A DNA stretch of 64,000 bases from an uncultured Coriobacteriaceae bacterium (GCA_964435565.1 CAYSZR010000002.1:102-64101); one strand, 5' to 3'. Positions 49,904 through 64,000 are shown, counted from the stretch's first letter. The notes: generated by a model from the letters alone, not told the origin. Translations and numbers: made by a program.

Positions 49904-52900
49904 TTATTTATCAGCGTCACCTCCCAGGAATCTGCGCCGGAAGAAGAAGAGGGATCCAAGAACGAGGGCCGCGATGCAGCCACAAGCTGCGAAGGCGAGA
50001 AGCGATTCGTCGCCGGTCTTGACTATATTTCCCAGGACACGGGAAAAGCCAGAGGATGTTTTGTCGGCAACGTGCACGGTCTGACGTTTGTCCTCGAGAT
50101 TTTCATGCGCGATAAGCCTGGAGCCGCTTGCATCGAGTAGCTGCTCGAAGGCGACAAGGTCATGACCGGCAATTCTTCGTGCATCGAGCTCGAAGCAGAC
50201 ATCGGCGCTGCCGCTTTCGCGTGTTGCCACAAAACGCGCTTTGACGGTGACGGGCCGATCATCGACAAGCAGCGGGGATCCGTCCGTCTTGTCCATCAAG
50301 GTACCGGCGATTATGTATTCTCTGCCGCATTCGAGCCCCGTGTATGTAACGGCATCTATGATCTTGCAGTCCAACGTTGCGGCAAGTTCGGAATCGCCGT
50401 CACTTGCATCGGATGCATGCGTTTCGAGTGTAGGCGAGACGATGTGGACAGTCTGCCCTTCATCTGCGAGGTCTGCATGCGTTGCCAATGTCGAGCCTGC
50501 ACGCAGCAGCGTCTCGAACACGACGACGTCTGCGTCGTTATCCATGATCGTGGTGTCGATTTCAAAATCGAGTTCGATACTGCCATGGGCAGTTTCAGGT
50601 GTGAATTTTGCCTGGGCGCTGATGGGGTTGCCAAAAGCATCGAGCGCGGGAGTGCCGGCCAAAGTCCCGTCGTTGACCATAAGGGTTCCCGTGAGTTCGT
50701 ATTCCTCGCCTGGTTTCAAACCCGTGTATGCGACGGTATCTGTAATGGTCGCGACTCGCCCGCGCATGATGACCTTGTCTGCATCAGCTTTGTCAATGGC
50801 GCTTGTCTGAATATTTGGCAGGCTTGCTATGACGGTTTGAGATGCGTTGTCGAGATTCTCATGAGAGGCGATGAGTTTTTCATCTCTATAGAGGTTTTCG
50901 AAGACCACCGCTGTTTGGGTCGTATTGTCGAGCGATGCATCATAGCGGAACGCGACTTCTGTTGTGCCGTCTGTTTTGTCAGGGATAAACGATTGAGTGC
51001 TCTGGATGGTCTTTCCCTGGGCGTCGAGCAACGGTTGGCCCGCTTCCTTGTCCATCAAGGTTCCCACGATGGTATAGCTTGCGCCTGGCTGCAGCCCGCG
51101 ATAGGACACCGCGTCGAGGATACGTGTTCCATCACCTGCTGAAATCTCACGGTCTCCGTCTTCGGGATCGCTTGCGCTCGTGGAAATGTCCGGTGGTTGC
51201 ACGCATACGGTCTGGCCTTCGTCTGCGATGTCTTCATGCTTGGTGATTTCGATGCCATCGCGAAAGAGCTTCTCGAAAACGACTAATTCGGAGCCGGCTT
51301 CGAGCGAGCTCGCGTCGAATGTGACGGTCAGGGGGAATTCGCCGTTTGCGTGTTCGGGCGTGAAGGTTGCGCTTGCCGTTGGCACGTTTCCCGAAGCGTC
51401 TGTGAGGGGCTGTCCTGTTGTCTTGTCCATAAGAGTTGCCACGAGGGTATATTCAGCCGCTGGCATAAGGTTCGCATACGATACGGTGTCTATGATGTGC
51501 GCATCTGTATCGCGCACGACGGTCTTCGTGTTGTCTCGCGAGACGGCGGATGTTTTGATCTGGGGTATTGCGATTGTGACGGTCTGCCCCGCATCATCGA
51601 GGTCTTCATGACGCGCCAGTTTGACGCCCGCGCGCGAGAGCCTTTCAAAAACCACGAGTTCGGCGCCTTCGTCTACGACTGTTGCATCAAGAGAAAACGA
51701 CATATGGGCTACCCCGTCTGAGCTTTCGGGGCTGAACTGCATTGTCGAGCTTACCGTGCTTCCATCGCGTTTTCTGAGCACTGTGCCGCTCTGCTTATCC
51801 ATGACCGTGCCGATAAGCTGGTAGGTCGTTTTTGGCTTGAGTCCCCTGAAGGCTACGAAATCATTAAGCGTTACGCCGTCATCGCGTGCAATGGTCTTTG
51901 ACATGTCATCGCCGCTCGCCGTGCTCTGCATGGAGGGCTGCTCGATGACGATGCTCTGCAAAGCGTCCTCGATATCGATATGGCTGGCGAGCTTGCGTCC
52001 ATCTCGGTATAGCTCTTCAAACACGACGCCGACTGTGGCGACGTTCGTGTTCGAGGCATCAAAGACGAATGGGATATCCACGCTTCCGTCTGATGTGATG
52101 GGAGCAAAGGTGCGAGAAGCGGTTACTTGCTGGCCAAATGGATCTGTTATCGGACGTCCGGTTTGTTTTTCTACGAGAGCACCTTTCATCGTGTATTCGC
52201 GTCCAGGTTGCAGGCCACTGTATGAAACAGTGTCAAGAATCGTTGTTTCTATATCCGCAGAGGCGATCTGATCGCCATCGGCCTGGTCGGCAACGCTCGT
52301 TTCGATTCTTGGAGGGAATACGGTCACGGTCTGGCCTTCATCTGATATATCTTCATGAGTGGCGATTTCCCTATCGCCCCGCGTGAGTTTTTCGAAAACG
52401 ACGAGCTCGGTTCCTGAATCGAGGCCAGTGGCATCGAATGTGAATGCCATATCCACCGTTCCATGCGATTCTTGCGGAGCAAAAGAAGCGCTGGTGCTGA
52501 TAGGAGCTCCGCTTGCAATATATGGTTGCCCGGTTTTCTTGTCCATGATGGTTCCCGTTAGGGTGTAGGTTGCACCCGGGGCTAGGCCGGTGAATGTGAC
52601 GTGGTCAAGCACAGTCGTGTCGACATCTTTGATTACGCGAGCGTCGCCGTCTGTAGCATCGCATGCAGACGTTGCGATGGCTGGCTGCACGACTGTCGCA
52701 GATTGGGAAGCGTCGTCAAGATCTTCATGGCGTGCCAGCACTCTGTCTCCTTCAAAGAGCGTTTCGCAGACGACGATTCGCGCTCCATCGGAAACGACGC
52801 TTGCATCGAAGACAAAGGGGAGTTCAAGAGTGCCGTTGGTGGCGGGCGCCGTAAACGTTGCATGGGATGTCACGGGGGATCCGTCGCTGCTCGGCAGAGC

Positions 52901-55045
52901 AAGGCCGGAGCCAGCATCCACCAACCACCCGTTGACTGTATACGAATGCCCGGCGACTAAACCGCTGTATGAAACGGTGTCGTTAAGGTGGGCGTCCATA
53001 TCTCGGCTAATGATTTTGTCGCCGTCTGCTGCATCGTAGGCAGTCGTGGCAATCGTAGGCGTGAGGTTTCCTACGGTGCCAAGATCGATGGTCGTCGCGT
53101 GTGCTGCATGCGCATAGGCTTCGAAGCTCACGAGCGCTTTGCCTGCGTTGGCTGCTACGGGCAACTCTTCGAAAAGATATTTGCAGGTAGAGCTGTCGGG
53201 CAAGGCCCCGTAATCGCTTCTGGGATCAATCCAGCCGCCATTAGCCGTCACGCCGAACCAGGTGCCTGCATCGGCATCGAGGCGCGTCTCATCGACGATG
53301 TATGCGCCGGTCATGTCTGTGCGCAATGCGGCGTCATTGGCATTTGTGCGTGTCGTGTGTTCGACATGGTTGGTATTCGAGTTGAATACGCCATTTGCGT
53401 CGGTAACTATCACATGGCGCTCGATCGGCGTCACGCCATCTGGCCCGATGCGGGTGACAAGGAATGGTATGCCGCTCATGGGGCGCTGCGTGTCCAGATC
53501 GCGCTTGGCAAAGCTGATGTCTTGGCGTATCGGGGTCTCCCAGATAGTGACTCCGTCTGCCCCAAGTGTTTCGCCTGCAGTCGTGTCGTGTTCGCCCGTG
53601 CCATTTGCTCGGACGGTGAAGACCGTGGGGGAGTTTTCTTTGGGAAACTCATAGGACGCAGGCACCGCGGTTTCGACGATTCTATAGGTCCCAAGCGGAA
53701 AGGCGCAGCTTCCATCTGCGCAGAAGAACAGCGCGTCTCCTCGCACGAAGCTTGCCTGAAGGTTTGAACGCAGGTCGACCTTGCCAGCTGCATCCGTTTT
53801 AAAGACCCATGTCCGTATAGGTGTGCCAGATGTTTCGCCATCGAGGTTCGCGAAATAGCTCACTTCGAACAGCGCATCTGCAAGGGGAGCGCTTCCAGAG
53901 GGGATGGATCCCCGTGTGAGTATGTCGTATTTGCTTATAAGAACACTGGGTGAAAGGCTTATCGGTTTATCGGAAACGTCATTGCCATGCGTATCCCCGG
54001 CCGTGCTGGCCGTGTCATGGATCCAGGCGTCTTGTCCGCCTTTGACCTCGCAGGTATAGATGGTTGAATTATAGGCATACCCTCTGCCCGTGACAGATGA
54101 TTCGACTTCGCGAATGAAGTAGGTTCCTGCATGCAGGTCTTCTGCTTCGGCATAGCCGTCTGCATTAAGAACGAGCGATTTTCCCGTGCCATGAGTGGAG
54201 CCGTTGCAATCCGCATTGGTGTAGATTCCATAGATGATTCCTTCAAGCGAATAACAAGGATTGCCATTTGTTATCTGGTCGTTTGCTGATGTCTTGTTTA
54301 TCTTTATCGTGCCGGTCGGGTTGTAGTACGAACTCATTGCGATGGTTTGAGAATCGCCGCCGTCGATTTGGTATGTCGCGAAGTCGCTGGGGACCTCGCC
54401 AGAACGTGCATAAGCACGCCGGCCCACGGCATTTGAGTTCTTCAATTCGCCGGTATTGATATCAAAGCCCGTGATGTAGAGCGTCAGCCAGTCAGAGAAG
54501 CTCTCGCTTGCGCCATATGTCGCATCGTATGCGCTTGAGCTATAGGTGTCTGCGAGCCATATATGAGAAGCGAGATAATAATCATCGCTGCTCATGGGCT
54601 CCCCGTTCCAGTTGACCGGTGGCCACATGCTCGCATCAAAGCCTGGTCCGCCATAAGCAAACCAGAGATCGGTTCTCATCTCTGCTTCTCGTCCGCTTAT
54701 CGTGCTGATGGGCGATTTCGAATAGTCACCTTCGCCTGGAGATGTTTTGGACGGTTCGACGCAGTATGCGACGGTGTCGCCTGCCCCGTCGTTGGCCCGA
54801 AATTTATGCGTATTCCACGAGCCGTCTGAGTAATCGATGGAACCGTCTTTCCAAAGGGACACGGTTTCGCCGGATGCCAGCGCGGGCTGGACGATGGATG
54901 CGCCCGGCCCCTGCAAGAGCAATGCGATGGCAAGAATGAGGCTTGCCGTCGTGATCATCAGCTGGAGTGTCGATTGTGCTGGGGATGTTTCTGATACTCC
55001 AAGAGATTTTCTTGTCGGATGTCGCTTTAAGGTTCGCATGCTCAT
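49904..55045 (-). CDS. Giant cell-wall-anchored adhesin with a Thr-Gln ester-bond (VaFE-type) repeat shaft
   Basis: 1713 aa. It has a signal peptide (...IVQPALA/SGE), an N-terminal region with YCVEP, and SpaA/Cna-B-like domains. Eight repeats of about 124-130 aa each carry VVFE and HxDxxDxxQ. The C-terminal sorting-like signal is IVKTGD plus a TM helix plus RRRF. Confidence 0.9.
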   Translation of the reverse strand: MSMRTLKRHPTRKSLGVSETSPAQSTLQLMITTASLILAIALLLQGPGASIVQPALASGETVSLWKDGSIDYSDGSWNTHKFRANDGAGDTVAYCVEPSKTSPGEGDYSKSPISTISGREAEMRTDLWFAYGGPGFDASMWPPVNWNGEPMSSDDYYLASHIWLADTYSSSAYDATYGASESFSDWLTLYITGFDINTGELKNSNAVGRRAYARSGEVPSDFATYQIDGGDSQTIAMSSYYNPTGTIKINKTSANDQITNGNPCYSLEGIIYGIYTNADCNGSTHGTGKSLVLNADGYAEAEDLHAGTYFIREVESSVTGRGYAYNSTIYTCEVKGGQDAWIHDTASTAGDTHGNDVSDKPISLSPSVLISKYDILTRGSIPSGSAPLADALFEVSYFANLDGETSGTPIRTWVFKTDAAGKVDLRSNLQASFVRGDALFFCADGSCAFPLGTYRIVETAVPASYEFPKENSPTVFTVRANGTGEHDTTAGETLGADGVTIWETPIRQDISFAKRDLDTQRPMSGIPFLVTRIGPDGVTPIERHVIVTDANGVFNSNTNHVEHTTRTNANDAALRTDMTGAYIVDETRLDADAGTWFGVTANGGWIDPRSDYGALPDSSTCKYLFEELPVAANAGKALVSFEAYAHAAHATTIDLGTVGNLTPTIATTAYDAADGDKIISRDMDAHLNDTVSYSGLVAGHSYTVNGWLVDAGSGLALPSSDGSPVTSHATFTAPATNGTLELPFVFDASVVSDGARIVVCETLFEGDRVLARHEDLDDASQSATVVQPAIATSACDATDGDARVIKDVDTTVLDHVTFTGLAPGATYTLTGTIMDKKTGQPYIASGAPISTSASFAPQESHGTVDMAFTFDATGLDSGTELVVFEKLTRGDREIATHEDISDEGQTVTVFPPRIETSVADQADGDQIASADIETTILDTVSYSGLQPGREYTMKGALVEKQTGRPITDPFGQQVTASRTFAPITSDGSVDIPFVFDASNTNVATVGVVFEELYRDGRKLASHIDIEDALQSIVIEQPSMQSTASGDDMSKTIARDDGVTLNDFVAFRGLKPKTTYQLIGTVMDKQSGTVLRKRDGSTVSSTMQFSPESSDGVAHMSFSLDATVVDEGAELVVFERLSRAGVKLARHEDLDDAGQTVTIAIPQIKTSAVSRDNTKTVVRDTDAHIIDTVSYANLMPAAEYTLVATLMDKTTGQPLTDASGNVPTASATFTPEHANGEFPLTVTFDASSLEAGSELVVFEKLFRDGIEITKHEDIADEGQTVCVQPPDISTSASDPEDGDREISAGDGTRILDAVSYRGLQPGASYTIVGTLMDKEAGQPLLDAQGKTIQSTQSFIPDKTDGTTEVAFRYDASLDNTTQTAVVFENLYRDEKLIASHENLDNASQTVIASLPNIQTSAIDKADADKVIMRGRVATITDTVAYTGLKPGEEYELTGTLMVNDGTLAGTPALDAFGNPISAQAKFTPETAHGSIELDFEIDTTIMDNDADVVVFETLLRAGSTLATHADLADEGQTVHIVSPTLETHASDASDGDSELAATLDCKIIDAVTYTGLECGREYIIAGTLMDKTDGSPLLVDDRPVTVKARFVATRESGSADVCFELDARRIAGHDLVAFEQLLDASGSRLIAHENLEDKRQTVHVADKTSSGFSRVLGNIVKTGDESLLAFAACGCIAALVLGSLFFFRRRFLGGDADK
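50070..53120 (-). repeat. Intragenic tandem array of 8 repeats (about 375-390 nt each) encoding Ig-like shaft domains
   Basis: The protein-level period contains I.TSA...D.V.Y.GL.PG..Y...G.LMDK.TG.P...VVFE.L.R....A.HEDI.DEGQTV. The boundaries are approximate. Confidence 0.8.
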
Positions 55046-57992: not shown

Positions 57993-58374
57993 ACGCGATG
58001 CTGAGTACCATACCGGCAGGCTCAACATCTCGTGCCCGCCGTCTATAAAGGATGCCATTGCTTCGGATGCGACAGCGCATGGACAATCGATAAGCCAGTT
58101 CATCTTGGCGCTTTATGAGAAAAGCGGTCAAGCTGGCAGCTCCGAGCATCTTGCGCGCGTGGGCCTTGACCTCGTGGGTCTCAAAAAGCGTATCGTCGAT
58201 ATCGACGTGCACATGCGGCGGATGCTGAGTCGCAACCAGGGCATGGTCGATCGGTCCGTTCTTGATGATTTAGCACAGCTCAAGACAATCGAGGCCGAGA
58301 TAGACGTTACGTTGCGTGAGACTATCAGCGCAGTGAAGCTCCTTAAAGAACGAGAGCACAATGACGGATATTAA
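57985..58374 (+). CDS. Ribbon-helix-helix (DUF1778/TacA-like N-terminus) protein with a coiled-coil tail
   Basis: RLNISCPPSIKDAIASDATAHGQSISQFILALYEK fits the RHH pattern (beta strand plus two helices). It overlaps the mog end by 8 nt and the next GNAT gene by 14 nt. Confidence 0.5.
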   Translation: MSKRDAEYHTGRLNISCPPSIKDAIASDATAHGQSISQFILALYEKSGQAGSSEHLARVGLDLVGLKKRIVDIDVHMRRMLSRNQGMVDRSVLDDLAQLKTIEAEIDVTLRETISAVKLLKEREHNDGY

Positions 58375-58855
58375 GATCAGGGCGTATTCGGATGCCGATG
58401 TTGCGACGATGGTCGCCATCTGGAACGAGGTCGTTGAAGACGGCATCGCCTTTCCGCAGGAAAATATGCTCGATGCTGGTACGGGGCGAGAGTTTTTTGC
58501 AGAACAAACTTATTGTGGGGTAGCCGAAGGCAACGATGGCCGAGTGTACGGGCTGTATATTTTGCACCCCAACAATATCGGGCGCTGCGGGCATATCTGC
58601 AATGCGAGTTATGCCGTTGCGGCAGCGAGCCGCGGTCTGCATATCGGGGAATCGCTTGTTAAAGATTGCCTCGAGCAGGGCAAGGTGCACGGGTTTCGTG
58701 TGCTGCAGTTCAACGCCGTGGTTGCGACCAATACGCACGCCCGTCACCTTTATGAACGATTGGGCTTCAAACAACTTGGAACCATTCCGGGTGGTTTTCG
58801 CATGCCTGATGGCAAGTACGAGGATATCTGCCCGTATTATCGCGAGCTGCTATAG
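58361..58855 (+). CDS. GNAT-family N-acetyltransferase (PAT/Mpr1-like)
   Basis: The acetyl-CoA motif A region is RGLHIGESLVKDCLEQGKVHGF. FNAVVATNTHARHLYERLGFKQLGTIP is typical of GNAT. Confidence 0.8.
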   Translation: MTDIKIRAYSDADVATMVAIWNEVVEDGIAFPQENMLDAGTGREFFAEQTYCGVAEGNDGRVYGLYILHPNNIGRCGHICNASYAVAAASRGLHIGESLVKDCLEQGKVHGFRVLQFNAVVATNTHARHLYERLGFKQLGTIPGGFRMPDGKYEDICPYYRELL

Positions 58856-58889
58856 CACGAAGTTTTGCGCTAGAATGATTTGCCGCAGC

Positions 58890-58966
58890 GCGCCCTTAGC
58901 TCAGCTGGATAGAGCACCGGACTTCTAATCCGACGGTCGAGGGTTCGAATCCCCCAGGGCGCGCCA
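58890..58966 (+). tRNA. tRNA-Arg (anticodon TCT), CCA encoded
   Basis: Acceptor GCGCCCT/AGGGCGC, D-arm GCTCAGCTGGATAGAGC, anticodon loop CTTCTAA and T-loop TTCGAAT. There is one mismatch in the T stem. Confidence 0.85.
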
Positions 58967-59160
58967 ATTCTCTCGAAGCCCGATAATCAAAAAAGGCATC
59001 TGAGCCGCTCAAACGGCGCTGAAATCCAAGAACATCAAATAGAGCAAAATCACCTGCCGTCAAATTGGCACCAAACAGATAAGCACAACGCATTCATTTG
59101 TTATCGGTAATCGCTAAGGATTTTAGAAATTCCAGCTCAATGCGGGTGAATAGTGCGCTA

Positions 59161-60960
59161 TTACTTCGTCAGGGAAAACGTTGAGCAGTTCAAATTGATG
59201 TTATTGTTGTATGTGCAGCGTTGCGCTGTTTTCAGCAGCGCGCGGATCTCGTCTCCGGCAACCTGCTCATAGGGATTGAGGGTAGCGCCGTTATCCCGCA
59301 TGCGCACGTGCACACATTCCTCGCAATCCGAAACGCTTAGCACCATTAATTTTTTTTCATTTGGAGCCAGCTGCCCATACGTCGCACGGGCAAGTCTCAA
59401 GCAAGCAAAGATCTGCTCTTGCAAAGGTTGCGAATATCCCTGTCGGTTCATGAATTCCGACAAGTCCCGCTCATTGGCCCGGTCGCCGTCTGCATTGATC
59501 TCCAGGCAGATATAGGCATCTTCCGATGCCGCCTCTTCGCCGGTATACATCATGAGGCCGTCTAACGTTAGGGTCCGCAAGCTCCGCTTTCCGCTTCTTA
59601 TCGTCCCCATCGTGAAGATAATGAAAAAAGTCAGAGCCTCGCTTACGATAAAGGACGCCCACAGGCCATCGGTGCCCATAAGCCCGCCCAGCAAAAACTC
59701 AAACGGGACGATGAGAAGCAGCAGCTCCAGTATGCTCAGAATCGTTGCAAGGTTCTCCCTTTTGCTGTTTTGGCAATAGAGGATCACCGTGGTGTTAGCT
59801 GATCGAAACACCAAGCTTATGGTAAGCATCACCATAGCGTTGCAAGCTATGGGCATAGCGGGGCTATCGGCCTCGATGCCCATAAGAAGCGGCGCCAATT
59901 GCGGGAAGAAGATGGTGAGCACCATTGCCGCAAGGCAGAATGCGACGCTGACGTTCAGCGTAAGGTAGAAGACTCTTTTTTGGGAAACGCGGTCCCCATC
60001 TCCTTGCATGACACCGATGATCGGAACCCCCGCCTGGATGAAGCCATACACAACCGCCAGCAAGACGTTGATCGACTGCGAGCGCACATTGAGGGCGGCC
60101 CCTGCCAGAGGCCCTGCGTAGGAAAATGCCAATACGGTCATGATCGTCATGTTGATGTATTCGCACAACTTGCCGCTGGCATAAGGTGCCCCTACCTTGA
60201 ATATTGCAAAGAGCGGATCCCTACGCGCCCCTTTTGCCACGAGTTTCAAGGTATTTGACTTCTTGCGAAAATGGGTGAGCAGAACTCCGATACCTGCGAT
60301 ATAGCTTATCGTGGTTGCCACGCCCAGACCGATGATGCCATAAGGTGCTACTATCAGCAGGTCCAGCACGATATCCAAAACCGCGATGACGGCAATGGCG
60401 ATAAGCGTCAGGTTCTTCGACCCATCCAGCCGGAGAAATGCGTTCAGGACCATGAGCGGGATGATAAGCGCTATGCCTGGCATGGTGCTGACGATATACT
60501 GCCAAGCCATAAGCCGTAAGGATTCGTCGACGCCTGTGCCACATATGAAATCGACGATCTGTGTGGCAAATACCATGCCGACGATAATCGTAATGACAGT
60601 CATCAAGATGCTGATGACCAGCGATTGGGTAAACCTGACATTGGCCGTTTCCCTATCGGCTTCGCCGATTGCATGAGCGGCGATCGTAGCACCACCCATG
60701 CAGAAATTACCGAGCATGGATGTAATCAACAGGAGAGGGGATGCTACCGCAATGGCGCTGAGCGCATTTTCGCCCAAAATCTGCCCGGCGATGACGCTGT
60801 CCGCAAAATTCCCGATGTAGTTGGTTACATACATCAGGACGGAAACCCAGAGGAAAGAGCGGAACGCTGAATTCAGCATCTTGAGTAACGCTGCTTGCCC
60901 GGAAAAGACGCGCTTCCTGTCTGTTTGTGTTTTCGGAAAACCGCGCGACTGCATCAGCAT
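59161..60960 (-). CDS. MATE-family efflux transporter with a cytoplasmic C-terminal extension of about 150 aa
   Basis: About 12 TM helices with MATE-like N-terminal packing. The start lies 1 nt after the GH3 stop. The last ~150 aa are hydrophilic and unassigned. Confidence 0.8.
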   Translation of the reverse strand: MLMQSRGFPKTQTDRKRVFSGQAALLKMLNSAFRSFLWVSVLMYVTNYIGNFADSVIAGQILGENALSAIAVASPLLLITSMLGNFCMGGATIAAHAIGEADRETANVRFTQSLVISILMTVITIIVGMVFATQIVDFICGTGVDESLRLMAWQYIVSTMPGIALIIPLMVLNAFLRLDGSKNLTLIAIAVIAVLDIVLDLLIVAPYGIIGLGVATTISYIAGIGVLLTHFRKKSNTLKLVAKGARRDPLFAIFKVGAPYASGKLCEYINMTIMTVLAFSYAGPLAGAALNVRSQSINVLLAVVYGFIQAGVPIIGVMQGDGDRVSQKRVFYLTLNVSVAFCLAAMVLTIFFPQLAPLLMGIEADSPAMPIACNAMVMLTISLVFRSANTTVILYCQNSKRENLATILSILELLLLIVPFEFLLGGLMGTDGLWASFIVSEALTFFIIFTMGTIRSGKRSLRTLTLDGLMMYTGEEAASEDAYICLEINADGDRANERDLSEFMNRQGYSQPLQEQIFACLRLARATYGQLAPNEKKLMVLSVSDCEECVHVRMRDNGATLNPYEQVAGDEIRALLKTAQRCTYNNNINLNCSTFSLTK

Positions 60961-60961
60961 A

Positions 60962-62647
60962 TCAGCTATCGACCAGGGCGAAGAAGAAATCTTCTTTGAA
61001 GGGGTTGTCTATCAGCCTTACAGGTTTGACCTGATTGGGAGATGCCCCTCTCATCTCCATCATCTCTCGGTAGAGCATATAGGTCTGCGGCTGCACGAAA
61101 TGGACGACGCACGGATCGATTGTCCCGTGCTCGCGGTAGTACTTGAAAATGGAACTCAGTTTCTGAAGACGCCTGTCTATGATCTCTGCATAATCGATTT
61201 CTGGAGAAGCGGGCGCATCGCATTCCATGAAGATGACGTATCTGCCGCTTGCCTGCGTATCCAAATCGATATACACGCTGTATTCCAGAACGCTGAGCCC
61301 GGTCTCTTCCTCAAACCCGCTGATTGCCATGTTGAATTCTTCTTCGGCGGTGTTCTCGCCGACTATGTTGGCAACCATATTTTTTCGATATGCGACCTTT
61401 ATATAGGGATTCTGATTGTAATAGCCTGTAACCTGCACGATGTCGTTGATTCGGTACCGGTAAAGACCCGAAGGCGTCGTAATGATGAGTTCGTAGCATT
61501 CTCCCACGGTGAGCTTGTCCATCGTAAGGGGAGTTTCGTCGACGGAATTAACCGGAATGAACTCGAAGAAGCAACCCTGGGTATCCAGTAGAAAATCGTT
61601 CGAATTCATTTTTGTGGGAAAAGCGAAGAAGCCTTCAGAGGCTGTATAGGCCATGGTGTCTACGGGAATGTCCTCGCCTAAAAACTCCTTCATCCTCATT
61701 CTGTAGGGGGTAAATACACCTGCTCCGATTGCGGTTACCCATCTTAGATTCTTCCAGATTCTTGGGCAGATGGGCGTATCGAAACCTTTGCCGAATTCCT
61801 CTCTCAATTCGGCGGCTCTTTCGGGGTCGGCCTGAAGCTTTGATTCGAACAAGGTCCTCTGTTCTTTTGGTATCGAGATTGAAGGGTCTATCCGTCCCTT
61901 CTCAAGGTCGTCGCACAGCATCTCCCATTTCGATTGCATGTAGCAGAACTTGTCGTAGACCAACGATGCGAACACGGAGAAGACAAAGAAGAGATCCTTT
62001 TCCGCTAAGGCAAAGAGAAGCAGCACGTACTTCATGTTGGCGGTGCTATCTGGATATAGGCACTCGGTCGGAGCTACAGATAGGTCGGCATAGTCTTCTT
62101 GGAAGGCCGTGAGGAAGGTGCTCGATATTCCGCTTATGGGGAGTCCGCAAGGCGATGTCAGTGCATTCAAATCGAGAAAGAACAGGCCTTTTCCGCATGT
62201 GAAATCGCGATTGTTCTCTTTGCAGTACTTTCGTGCAAGGGAAAACGAGCGTACATAGATCATCGTGGAAGCCAGCTGCATATCTTTTCGCGAGACGGGA
62301 ATGTGCTTTGGCACACCAGTGCTGCCCGAGGTCTGTGCATAGCGCACGATGGGGGTTGTTGTCAGGATATCCTGCTCGTTTTTCGTGAACATTCTTGAAA
62401 TATAGGGCTCTAAATCGTCGTAATTGAGCAGCGGCACCGATTTTCTGTAATCCTCGAGGGAGTGTATTTCCGAGAAATGATGTTTCAAGCCGAATTCCGT
62501 GTTCACATTCCGCTGAATGAGCTCCATGAGCTTTGCTTCGGCATCTGCCTCGCCGGTTTCGGTACCTTTGAAAACATCAGTAAGGATCATGTCGCCTCGG
62601 TCGGCCAGATCATTGATGACCTTGGAGGTTCTGTCTTTGTCGTTCAT
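60962..62647 (-). CDS. GH3-family acyl-acid amido synthetase (adenylating enzyme)
   Basis: YAQTSGSTGVPKHIPVS phosphate-binding loop, YR..D.V and size (561 aa), typical of bacterial GH3 'auxin-responsive promoter family' proteins. Confidence 0.8.
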   Translation of the reverse strand: MNDKDRTSKVINDLADRGDMILTDVFKGTETGEADAEAKLMELIQRNVNTEFGLKHHFSEIHSLEDYRKSVPLLNYDDLEPYISRMFTKNEQDILTTTPIVRYAQTSGSTGVPKHIPVSRKDMQLASTMIYVRSFSLARKYCKENNRDFTCGKGLFFLDLNALTSPCGLPISGISSTFLTAFQEDYADLSVAPTECLYPDSTANMKYVLLLFALAEKDLFFVFSVFASLVYDKFCYMQSKWEMLCDDLEKGRIDPSISIPKEQRTLFESKLQADPERAAELREEFGKGFDTPICPRIWKNLRWVTAIGAGVFTPYRMRMKEFLGEDIPVDTMAYTASEGFFAFPTKMNSNDFLLDTQGCFFEFIPVNSVDETPLTMDKLTVGECYELIITTPSGLYRYRINDIVQVTGYYNQNPYIKVAYRKNMVANIVGENTAEEEFNMAISGFEEETGLSVLEYSVYIDLDTQASGRYVIFMECDAPASPEIDYAEIIDRRLQKLSSIFKYYREHGTIDPCVVHFVQPQTYMLYREMMEMRGASPNQVKPVRLIDNPFKEDFFFALVDS

Positions 62648-62676
62648 AAGATGGCTTTACCTTTGCAGTATTGGAG

Positions 62677-63099
62677 CTATTTCCGATGCCAAGCAACTGG
62701 CAGGGGGTTACAGGTAGCTAAGCGCTCGCAGGTTGGACAGTCACCGGAAATCTTCGGATCGAGCTCGTCCCAGGGAACCTCGTGAAAGCCCAAACTTAGA
62801 TAGAATCCAGAAGACTCACCGCGTGCTACGCAGCGGATGTCGTCATATCGTTCCATGACATCTTCTAGCAACAAGCGGCCAACGCCGGTGCCGCGCAAGG
62901 ATGCGTCTATGATGATTGGTTCCAAGTAGGCGATGCCCTCGATGATATTCAACCGTACAAATCCTACGATGGGTTCTGATTCGCTTGCGCGCACCACACG
63001 CACGACATCATAATCATGAGGCGTTGCCATGGATGCTTTTTTGCAAAGCTCGTCTACGCGGGGAATGTCTTCTTGCTTCATTGTTTGTACCTGCATCAT
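62677..63099 (-). CDS. Short ArgA-like (COG1246-type) amino-acid N-acetyltransferase, GNAT fold with a C-terminal Cys motif
   Basis: GNAT motif A is RGTGVGRLLLEDV. The C-terminal PWDELDPKISGDCPTCERLATC resembles the ...KvW.DC..C....C tail of short N-acetylglutamate-synthase-like GNATs. The ATG at 63099 follows AAAGGGG. Confidence 0.7.
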   Translation of the reverse strand: MMQVQTMKQEDIPRVDELCKKASMATPHDYDVVRVVRASESEPIVGFVRLNIIEGIAYLEPIIIDASLRGTGVGRLLLEDVMERYDDIRCVARGESSGFYLSLGFHEVPWDELDPKISGDCPTCERLATCNPLPVAWHRK

Positions 63100-63185
63100 T
63101 GCACCCCTTTCGGTTGCAGTTGATGCTACCATGATTGAAACGCGCATTCTATGCCAATGCGTGTTTTATTTTAGAAGGGTAGGGC

Positions 63186-64000
63186 ATGCATTTTAGAAAC
63201 ATACAGCTTACCGATAAGCAACCTATAGAGGCAGTGTTGAGTCGTCTTGCACGCAATGATTCTGCTTTAGGGTTCGCCAATATCTATGGCATGCAAGATA
63301 AATACGGCACGAAGTTCTGTATTGAAGACGAGGTCCTTTATCTGCGTCAAGATGCGCGTATTCCCGGCAGAATCGCTTACTATCTGCCACTCGGCGCATC
63401 CGACATGCTGAGTGAAACTGCCAAGCTGGCCTCCATGGTCTCATCGGAAGGCCCGTTTGCCTTCGTGGGTATCACGCCAGAGGAGAAGGCCGCATTCGAA
63501 GCTGCTGGAACCACTATGACGTTTTCGACCGATCGGACCTTTGCCGAATATATTTTTCGCACCGAGGATATCGCGGAGTATCGCGGACACGAGCGCGCCA
63601 AGAAACGGCAAGAGGCAAACAGGTTCAGAAAGCTTTACGGCGCGGGCACGCGCATCGAGCCGATTGGCGAGCATAACCTCGACGCTGTCGCAGCTTACGA
63701 GGATGCGTGGTTCCATGCAAACCTGGGTCGTCACATGGATTCGCATCATCCGCTTGAAGCAGAGCACGACAAAATCATGCTGGAACTGCAGCACTTCGAG
63801 GCGCTGGATCTGGAAGGTATCGTCATGTATATCGACGATACTGCAGCTGGCTATGCCTACGGGCAGTTGCTGCCGGGTGGAGCTTTCGACGTGATAGTTT
63901 TGAAGGGAACGCTCTCTTATCGCTTTATCTGGCGTGCAATGTTGCAAGAGATAGCTAAGTTCGTTGTCGACCGTGCCCCCTTGCTCAATTTAGAAGAGGA
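63186..64000 (+). CDS. DUF2156 / LPG_synthase_C-like protein (truncated by the window end)
   Basis: Own translation from the ATG at 63186 gives MHFRNIQLTDKQPIEAVLSRL...STDRTFAEYIFRTEDIAEYRGHERAKKRQEANRFRKLYG..., open to position 64000 (271+ aa). It is absent from the ORF track because no stop lies in the window. The pattern matches DRd.(f/y)eYiY..edl..l.G....KRn..NrF. Confidence 0.6.
   Translation, partial: MHFRNIQLTDKQPIEAVLSRLARNDSALGFANIYGMQDKYGTKFCIEDEVLYLRQDARIPGRIAYYLPLGASDMLSETAKLASMVSSEGPFAFVGITPEEKAAFEAAGTTMTFSTDRTFAEYIFRTEDIAEYRGHERAKKRQEANRFRKLYGAGTRIEPIGEHNLDAVAAYEDAWFHANLGRHMDSHHPLEAEHDKIMLELQHFEALDLEGIVMYIDDTAAGYAYGQLLPGGAFDVIVLKGTLSYRFIWRAMLQEIAKFVVDRAPLLNLEE

Follow-up and report, generated by a model that had tools for sequence, protein, structure and literature searches.

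Four protein-coding genes follow a tRNA-Arg gene at the end of a 64,000-nucleotide stretch of DNA from an uncultured Coriobacteriaceae bacterium (GCA_964435565.1, CAYSZR010000002.1:102-64101; hereafter the window), and they raise the question of whether three transfer enzymes and an exporter can make up one pathway. The genes encode a small GNAT acetyltransferase (GNAT140), a GH3 amido synthetase, a MATE exporter and a protein of the DUF2156/LPG_synthase_C family, and the original prediction was that all four form a tRNA-flanked module for transfer and export. The data suggest a different division. The idea of a GNAT140-GH3-MATE operon survives, but the membership of DUF2156 does not, and we tentatively read the region as a lineage-specific block of two separable units, in which GNAT140, GH3 and MATE would make and export an amide conjugate and DUF2156 would be separate. 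We put the probability of this reading at about 0.42. The features of the locus, with positions in the window and strand, are as follows (aa, amino acids; ORF, open reading frame).

58890-58966, plus strand: tRNA-Arg(TCT), from ARAGORN; Rfam tRNA at 64 bits
58997-59015, minus strand: terminator-like hairpin and T-run 3' of the MATE stop codon, from a consensus scan
59161-60960, minus strand: MATE exporter, ORF of 599 aa
59164-59595, minus strand: predicted C-terminal cytoplasmic domain of MATE (about aa 456-599), RsbW/SpoIIAB-like GHKL fold
59596-60960, minus strand: MATE transporter core (about aa 1-455), Pfam MatE
60962-62647, minus strand: GH3, ORF of 561 aa, acyl-acid amido synthetase family
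62677-63099, minus strand: GNAT140, 140 aa, first gene of the operon; the start at 63147 is also open (156 aa)
63100-63185, no strand: divergent intergenic region between GNAT140 and DUF2156, 86 bp measured from the 140-aa GNAT start
63186-64000, plus strand: window part (271 of 300 aa) of the DUF2156/LPG_synthase_C gene, which ends at window-equivalent 64088

This layout agrees with the one predicted. The tRNA-Arg(TCT) gene lies next to the cluster, the ORF coordinates of the three minus-strand genes leave gaps of 29 nt (GNAT140 to GH3) and 1 nt (GH3 to MATE), DUF2156 starts divergently at 63186 on the other side of the 86 bp, and all the domain assignments, including the profile searches with GH3 and DUF2156, hold in Pfam. 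We counted the close packing and the hairpin after MATE, a pattern match with an 8-bp stem followed by CCTTTTTTGA, in favour of an operon whose three genes would be co-transcribed. The 140-aa form of GNAT140 is the one used by the gene calls in four independent contigs. The scan for sigma-70-like promoters found no consensus in the 86-bp spacer and fewer sites than in shuffled controls, and such a scan is uninformative for this phylum.

Gene neighbourhoods in other genomes show which of these genes travel together. We compared 83 GH3 loci, 80 from a profile-guided metagenome scan and three others, with neighbours labelled by BLAST and Pfam (loci and contigs used for comparison carry L numbers). 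In one setting a SpoIIE::HATPase_c_2 gene is followed by STAS, GH3 and a long MATE (L087, L139 and L163; in L150 no STAS gene was detected). In a second the order is STAS, GH3, ATP-grasp and two ABC genes (L144 and L152-L160, with L006 similar). In a third a nonribosomal peptide synthetase (NRPS) of the form A-T-C precedes GH3 (L106-L108; L107 also has an upstream long MATE), and in a variant of it a condensation-like protein comes after GH3 (L115 and L126). L005 shows a fourth, SpoIIE-GH3-GH3-ABC-ABC. An exporter lies no more than three genes away in 18 of the 70 full-length GH3 cases, and the other neighbours counted at this distance are AMP-binding or NRPS genes (13), STAS (11), ATP-grasp (8) and SpoIIE (6). 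Judged by these neighbours, GH3 belongs to what is predicted to be a setting of small-molecule assembly and export. The long MATE lies 3-30 nt after GH3 in L087, L139, L150 and L163, and the pair is reordered in L107 and L175. The window MATE finds its best local matches in these GH3-linked long MATEs, and the alignment extends through the C-terminal domain. The 1-nt spacing in the window, together with the recurrence of the pair at at least six other loci, argues for GH3 and long MATE as a real module.

Some of these loci are of interest in their own right. The operon STAS-GH3-ATP-grasp(RimK-like)-ABC-ABC-447 aa is conserved in L152-L160 and L144, which are human gut metagenome contigs, and in L006 (8001-16747), and the version in Eubacterium sp. 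AB3007 has an extra 837-aa ATP-grasp::GH3 fusion; the operon resembles an NRPS-independent cluster for amide assembly and export. In L107 (5303-11671) a long MATE, a single NRPS module (A-T-C, 975 aa) and GH3 lie on one strand, and L106, L108 and L149 are listed with it. The stand-alone condensation-like proteins behind GH3 in L115 and L126 are 456-471 aa long, and a family of 517-537 aa without a Pfam match is found behind GH3 in six loci (L110, L111, L124, L135, L140 and L147).

If all four window genes formed one pathway, three transferases, one of them aminoacyl-tRNA dependent, would act before export. The genes are adjacent, the 86-bp divergent spacer could hold a common regulatory site, and the fold class of DUF2156 acts in natural-product pathways, for example in Sbb17 (template modelling (TM) score 0.57-0.60 to our model). 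GNAT140 could also be seen as a bridge, since it is linked to GH3 here and its homologue is linked to DUF2156 in Raoultibacter. That homologue (L090:7469-7921, minus strand) is 42% identical to GNAT140 and lies divergent from DUF2156 across 79 bp, with neither GH3 nor MATE nearby. The neighbourhoods speak against the single pathway: DUF2156 and GNAT140 homologues were found near GH3 in 0 of the 83 loci, even at an expectation value (E) below 1, and GH3 or MATE stood beside DUF2156 orthologues in none of the six distinct contexts examined. A word-indexed search with DUF2156 gave 23 other proteins, about 20 of them full-length at 41-64% identity, and those with names are from Raoultibacter and Adlercreutzia. 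The contexts of the orthologues, which are 44-64% identical, are PAS-GGDEF/DUF2156/rpoB, YacP/DUF2156, rubredoxin/DUF2156/AIRS and iron-type alcohol dehydrogenase (Fe-ADH)/DUF2156, and in several Eggerthellaceae the gene is in a housekeeping region near SpoU/YacP/rpoB. On this comparison DUF2156 appears to be widespread in Eggerthellaceae as a solitary gene that is separable from GH3-MATE. Because the GH3 loci are without DUF2156 and GNAT140, and the DUF2156 loci without GH3 and MATE, the block reads as two juxtaposed modules, GNAT/DUF2156 and GH3-MATE, with GNAT140 now heading the GH3-MATE operon. No other genome that we reached has the four genes in synteny, so the four-gene version is refuted in that data, and we consider a single pathway of this kind distinctly improbable.

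The two genes that flank the 86-bp spacer were assigned as follows. GNAT140 matches the Pfam families Acetyltransf_10, Acetyltransf_7 and Acetyltransf_1 (E 1.6e-08 for Acetyltransf_10), and its NCBIfam scores are far under cutoff (PRK07757, 41.8 against 154; PRK07922, 15.7 against 180). The label 'ArgA-like' that it had been given is not borne out by these scores, which support generic GNAT membership only. A word-indexed homologue search with GNAT140 returned the query alone, which limits the view of the family to the Raoultibacter pair. Both members of that pair have a C-terminal cysteine motif, DCxTCE(x5)C.PLP (62677-62730, minus strand, in GNAT140), possibly a metal or redox site. DUF2156 matches LPG_synthase_C (PF09924) at 6e-19 and 68.6 bits against 27.5 over its 271 aa in the window, in agreement with a precomputed match of the 300-aa protein, and matches a Bacteroides protein of unassigned function (PDB 2hqy) at E 5e-29. 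The AlphaFold2 (AF2) model built with 23 homologues has a predicted local distance difference test (pLDDT) score of 93.7, and Foldseek gives it TM scores of 0.92 to 2hqy, 0.62-0.71 to the C-terminal domains of MprF and 0.57-0.62 to Sbb17 and FemX. In the model, two GNAT lobes are joined by a K/R-rich basic helix (H135-154, GHERAKKRQEANRFRKLYG). No hydrophobic or transmembrane segment was detected in the 300 aa. The modelled protein thus appears to be a free-standing tandem-GNAT enzyme of the MprF/FemX fold. It shares the tandem-GNAT fold and basic connecting helix with the MprF synthase domain, 2hqy and ErgS, and is free-standing like the latter two, whereas full MprF has an N-terminal flippase domain and membrane segment that the window protein lacks. 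The donor and acceptor specificity of DUF2156 proteins is not predictable from sequence, and ErgS, a fungal free-standing member, is lipid-modifying (PMC8913301).

The central enzyme of the operon would be GH3. Its N, M and C domains are found by Pfam at 5e-67, 2e-22 and 2e-16 (226.6, 79.6 and 61.2 bits against a cutoff of 23.6), and it aligns over its full length with the rice enzyme OsGH3.8 (7dk8) at E 2e-53. The nucleotide-binding motifs are present (S107-G108-x2-G111-x2-K114, Y334-x-A336-x-E338 and Y396-R397-Y398-x3-D402), and the segments TSGSTGVPK114, YTASE338 and YRYRIND402, aligned to OsGH3.8, are invariant across 24 GH3 homologues. From the domains, the motifs and the full-length match to a plant GH3, the ligase is predicted to be catalytically intact, and the expected chemistry is acid-dependent adenylation followed by amide formation. 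The likeness to plant GH3 enzymes (OsGH3.8; VvGH3-1, 4b2g; JAR1, 4epl; PBS3/GH3.12, 4epm) extends to the three-domain architecture, the ATP/AMP motifs, full-length alignments at E 2e-53 to 1e-46 and the same expected reaction, in which an adenylated carboxylate is passed to an amino acid. Unlike these enzymes, which are distant in sequence, the window gene is bacterial and has a GNAT and an efflux pump as its operon partners. In plants, PBS3 (a GH3) and EDS5 (a MATE) are partners in salicylate synthesis; this is an analogy and not a homology of systems. In a word-indexed search of 5.8 billion proteins the nearest GH3 homologue is 41% identical, and the top matches come from Clostridia, among them Lachnospiraceae and Eubacterium. 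When species-representative genomes were scanned with this one GH3 sequence, no relative was found.

Bacterial GH3 enzymes had been described as essentially uncharacterised, a statement that is out of date since the characterisation in 2025 of OlsH from Singulisphaera acidiphila, a lyso-ornithine lipid synthetase that makes N-acyl-ornithine and whose operon partner, of the planctomycete type, is the alpha/beta-hydrolase O-acyltransferase OlsI (PMC12493201). OlsH resembles the window protein as a bacterial GH3, one with demonstrated ATP-dependent N-acylation of an amino acid, and is its sole NCBIfam match. This match reaches 109 bits, where the cutoff is 620, and is confined to the C-terminal half (residues 296-513). 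The neighbours of the window gene are GNAT, MATE, DUF2156 and LysR, with no OlsI-like alpha/beta hydrolase, and we rejected an assignment as the OlsH equivalog. The two also differ in distribution: homologues of OlsH occur chiefly in Bacteroidota, Pseudomonadota and Planctomycetota, whereas the clade of the window gene, which together with its contexts falls outside the OlsH paper (PMC12493201), is found in gut Clostridia and Eggerthellaceae.

These comparisons also bear on aminolipid remodelling, in which an OlsH-like GH3 would make an N-acyl amino acid (a lyso-aminolipid), DUF2156 would aminoacylate a lipid in the manner of MprF and MATE would act as a translocator. MATE lies in the same superfamily as the MurJ and Wzx flippases and has a weak MurJ match (22.5 bits against a cutoff of 27.4). 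OlsH is a proven maker of N-acyl-ornithine (PMC12493201), DUF2156 has the MprF synthase fold, and ErgS shows that a free-standing DUF2156 protein can modify lipids (PMC8913301). This explanation would unify the four genes, yet on the sequence comparisons it appears to fail the tests of OlsH identity and of synteny: the OlsH score is partial and low, OlsI is missing, GH3 matches plant GH3 over its whole length, and DUF2156 has neither a membrane segment nor synteny with GH3. We give it hardly any chance of being correct.

The exporter has an unusual C-terminus. The protein matches Pfam MatE in two stretches (E 1.5e-20, 73.9 bits against 24.9) and scores 92.4 with TIGR00797, under the cutoff of 147.4; by these scores it appears to be a divergent member of the family. 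The stretch from aa 61 to aa 454 contains roughly 10-11 hydrophobic segments, and about 145 residues extend beyond the transporter core. This tail is colinear with the HATPase_c_2 domains of the GH3-linked long MATEs and of at least 16 further homologues. A Pfam search with aa 441-599 gave no match, and HATPase_c_2 was found in six homologues at 1e-13 to 4e-4. The AF2 model of the tail has a pLDDT of 79.6 (moderate confidence), and its top Foldseek matches are UsfX, RsbW and SpoIIAB (8ih8, 6m37 and 1th8; target-normalised TM 0.66-0.75), structures that were all crystallised with STAS antagonists or sigma factors. The tail keeps the RMRDNGxxxNP motif and the C-terminal Y..N..N, and has lost the N-box, where the consensus IEEMAGNxxxH (EExxGNxxxH motif) has become LRLARATYGQL. 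It is probably a non-catalytic interaction module because the ATP-binding residues are lost. The likeness to the RsbW, SpoIIAB and UsfX kinases is thus one of fold, and members of the MATE family with HATPase_c_2 adjoin STAS and SpoIIE genes as well; those kinases are soluble, whereas the window domain is fused to a 12-transmembrane-type transporter and is without the N-box Asn and His. One listed relative of the tail is L087:5267-5866.

An exhaustive search gave 5,328 matches at E<1e-3, the closest relative being 32% identical; among the best 150 cluster representatives, a length of 570-610 aa is nearly universal. The matches suggest that long MATEs with an RsbW/SpoIIAB-like tail are a large family. 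In L178 (6001-7782) the operon is SpoIIE-RsbW-STAS-STAS-APH-like kinase-MATE, and in L180 (6001-7755) an APH::STAS fusion lies directly upstream of MATE. Compared in this way, the pump and STAS partner-switching parts appear to be constant in long-MATE loci and the modifying enzyme, a GH3 or an APH-like kinase, to be variable. No description of a MATE pump with an anti-sigma-factor-like tail was found in the literature searched, and such a tail suggests a mode of coupling or gating efflux. It may even be that these proteins form a large undescribed class of 'modify-and-export' systems, in which STAS, free or fused to an enzyme, would bind the tail and either gate efflux through partner switching or dock the cargo-modifying GH3 or APH-like kinase on the pump, and of which the window operon would be a streamlined derivative that secretes a new N-acetylated or amino-acid-conjugated metabolite from a gut member of the Coriobacteriia; we regard this extension as doubtful.

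Taken together, the data suggest that GNAT140, GH3 and MATE probably make and export a small amide conjugate. GH3 would adenylate a carboxylic acid with ATP and couple it with an amine, of which an amino acid is the likeliest, GNAT140 would acetylate substrate or product at a free amino group, and the long MATE would export the conjugate, with its cytoplasmic RsbW/SpoIIAB-like tail serving as a docking or regulatory domain. The Ngg enzyme (N-acetylglutaminylglutamine synthetase; TIGR03103 is the family name) offers a parallel in which an acetyltransferase and an ATP-dependent amide ligase yield a small N-acetylated, peptide-like molecule. It differs in that the ligase is an ATP-grasp protein and not a GH3, the two activities are fused and there is no dedicated exporter; no homology is claimed.

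The same three genes could instead serve detoxification, with GH3 (for an aryl or fatty acid) and GNAT140 (for an amine) conjugating an incoming dietary, host or drug molecule and MATE expelling the conjugate. MATE pumps are classic exporters of drugs and toxins, the APH family and GNATs include typical modifiers of xenobiotics, and plant GH3 enzymes inactivate hormones through conjugation. APH-family kinases accompany the closest relatives among the long MATEs, and the best NCBIfam neighbours of the window MATE are multidrug MATEs such as FepA, all of them under cutoff. We lean towards a self-made secreted amide, N-acetylated or amino-acid-linked, because the neighbours of GH3 relatives often include an NRPS A-T-C module, a stand-alone condensation-like protein, an ATP-grasp ligase or another GH3, and multistep assembly fits this company better than inactivation in one step. 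Additionally, the operon has no flanking regulator of the TetR or MarR type, and the adjacent LysR gene faces another gene. Detoxification seems unlikely to us, but in view of the APH and GNAT partners of the pump family it is a serious rival.

Several points weigh against biosynthesis and export by GNAT140-GH3-MATE. Adjacency of GNAT and GH3 is unique to the window among the loci reached. The window GH3 is 40-41% identical to ABC-linked GH3s and 30-36% identical to MATE-linked ones, and given the latter value its pairing with MATE here could be independent of the pairing at other loci; in a neighbour-joining tree it falls near the NRPS/MATE-linked clade L106-L108, on long branches. Neighbours were called as crude ORFs and labelled by BLAST on metagenome contigs, many of them short, and absences among them are weak evidence. 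DUF2156 may yet be co-regulated with the operon through the common 86-bp region. As for the tail, no sigma factor, STAS or SpoIIE gene was found in the available 65.5 kb (by tblastn for STAS and SpoIIE), and without these partners nearby and without the N-box the regulatory idea may not apply to the window copy.

To our knowledge, the one function so far characterised for a bacterial GH3 is that of OlsH in lipid synthesis. The clade in gut Clostridia and Eggerthellaceae, unlike OlsH with its lipid role, adjoins exporters, NRPS or ATP-grasp ligases and partner-switching proteins. This setting points to secreted amide metabolites or to conjugated dietary or host acids, and either bears on host-microbe chemistry. 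The literature searched holds no account of GH3 linked to STAS or SpoIIE, nor of such a GH3 system in gut bacteria or biosynthetic clusters, and the paper on OaaC and fatty-acid amides does not mention GH3.

The block as a whole begins at the 3' end of the tRNA. A MoaA scan of species-representative genomes places the window in an uncultured gut member of the Coriobacteriia close to Eggerthellaceae and supplied about ten sister metagenome-assembled genomes, in which MoaA is 82-86% identical. The order MoaA-MoaC-MoaB-hyp129-tRNA-Arg is kept in these genomes (L008-L017), and after the tRNA they have mIHF-like, MurA and LCP genes and no gene of the block. Nucleotide homology to at least ten of them ends at 58966-58975, at the tRNA 3' end. 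The block after this end appears to be lineage-specific and accessory because the sister genomes carry the mIHF-like, MurA and LCP genes there instead; tblastn found none of these three in 65.5 kb. Upstream of the tRNA, homology to the sister genomes is also interrupted, from about 58355 to 58864, by the following gene.

58361-58855, plus strand: GNAT164, a small acetyltransferase (Pfam Acetyltransf_1, 7e-12) unrelated to GNAT140

GNAT164 is missing at this site in all sister genomes, where hyp129 directly precedes tRNA-Arg, and the comparison suggests that a second insertion took place independently across the tRNA from the block. The gene has a 14-nt overlap with the end of hyp129, and its best NCBIfam match, a weak one, is to the ArsN1 family (40.5 bits; cutoff 170). 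In a more distant relative, L018 (12373-17026; gene labels read by eye from ORF translations), 2-hydroxyacyl-CoA dehydratase/BcrAD-like (HgdAB-like) genes lie between hyp129 and tRNA-Arg, and an Fe-ADH gene lies between tRNA-Arg and MurA.

Variation on both sides of the tRNA, with GNAT164 inserted here and, in L018, the HgdAB-like genes before it and Fe-ADH after it, would also fit a chance juxtaposition of unrelated cargo at a recombination hotspot, as would the finding of GNAT-GH3 adjacency nowhere else. The 1-nt gap between GH3 and MATE, the pairing of GH3 with long MATE at other loci and a host-like codon composition, which indicates maintained genes, speak against it, and we find it very improbable. 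As regards the predicted island, a lineage-specific block starting at the tRNA 3' end stands, but the low GC and the marks of a mobile element do not. The region resembles tRNA-linked genomic islands in that a variable block abuts the tRNA 3' end and is missing at that site in sister genomes. It is unlike them in having no integrase in the window or 1.5 kb beyond (none had been visible to the original prediction either), no exact repeat of the tRNA end of at least 10 nt in the visible 6.6 kb (58967-65547) and no compositional deviation. A search of the window for a repeat of the tRNA-Arg 3' end at up to 3 mismatches over 25 nt was likewise negative. A tRNA-integrated mobile element is thus unsupported in the reachable sequence, and the far border may lie past the contig end.

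Composition was expected to set the cluster apart, at about 50% GC (G+C content) against about 63% in the arg genes. This is not what we find. The GC of the cluster region is 0.508 and that of the whole window 0.536, and in 5-kb windows (mean 0.539, sd 0.019) 8.6% are as low as the cluster region or lower; the arg-region genes have a GC of 0.595-0.597. The suggested check of sliding-window GC and codon composition gave no atypical signal: GC at third codon positions is 0.54-0.66 in the four genes, in line with 0.619 ± 0.069 in the other genes of the window. The codon composition is host-like, and the genes are maintained and not recent debris. The tRNA-Arg neighbourhood is thus apparently a hotspot of this lineage that is recognisable by gene content and has no compositional signature.

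The far border of the block was not reached because the sequence of all available contigs stops at window-equivalent ~65,547. The overlapping Logan contig L001 (20 mismatches over a 13-kb overlap) completes DUF2156 to 300 aa and then carries a LysR regulator in convergent orientation, followed by the initial 24 codons of a further gene. That gene starts MENTPYKVDEGNGTFKVRTCAWSP (L001:1-272, window-equivalent ~65276-65547) and is divergent from LysR; four locus contigs, and apparently also the 65.7-kb NCBI contig, break about 70 nt into it, which suggests a repeated or strain-variable gene family there.

Other scans of the region gave little. The tRNA was the only match accepted in the Rfam scan; a 'Plastid-ycf2 5UTR' match at 58890-58964 (minus strand), antisense to the tRNA and at 37 bits against a gathering threshold of 65.7, was read as a tRNA-like artefact. 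A defence-system reading was dropped, as PADLOC gave matches at noise level only, and direct or inverted repeats other than the tRNA end were matches of chance size. Finally, the gene at 49904-55045 (minus strand) encodes a surface protein of 1,713 aa that has TED_2 (thioester) and TQ domains as well as faint SpoA and fn3 matches, a probable covalent adhesin of the type usual in Gram-positive gut bacteria.

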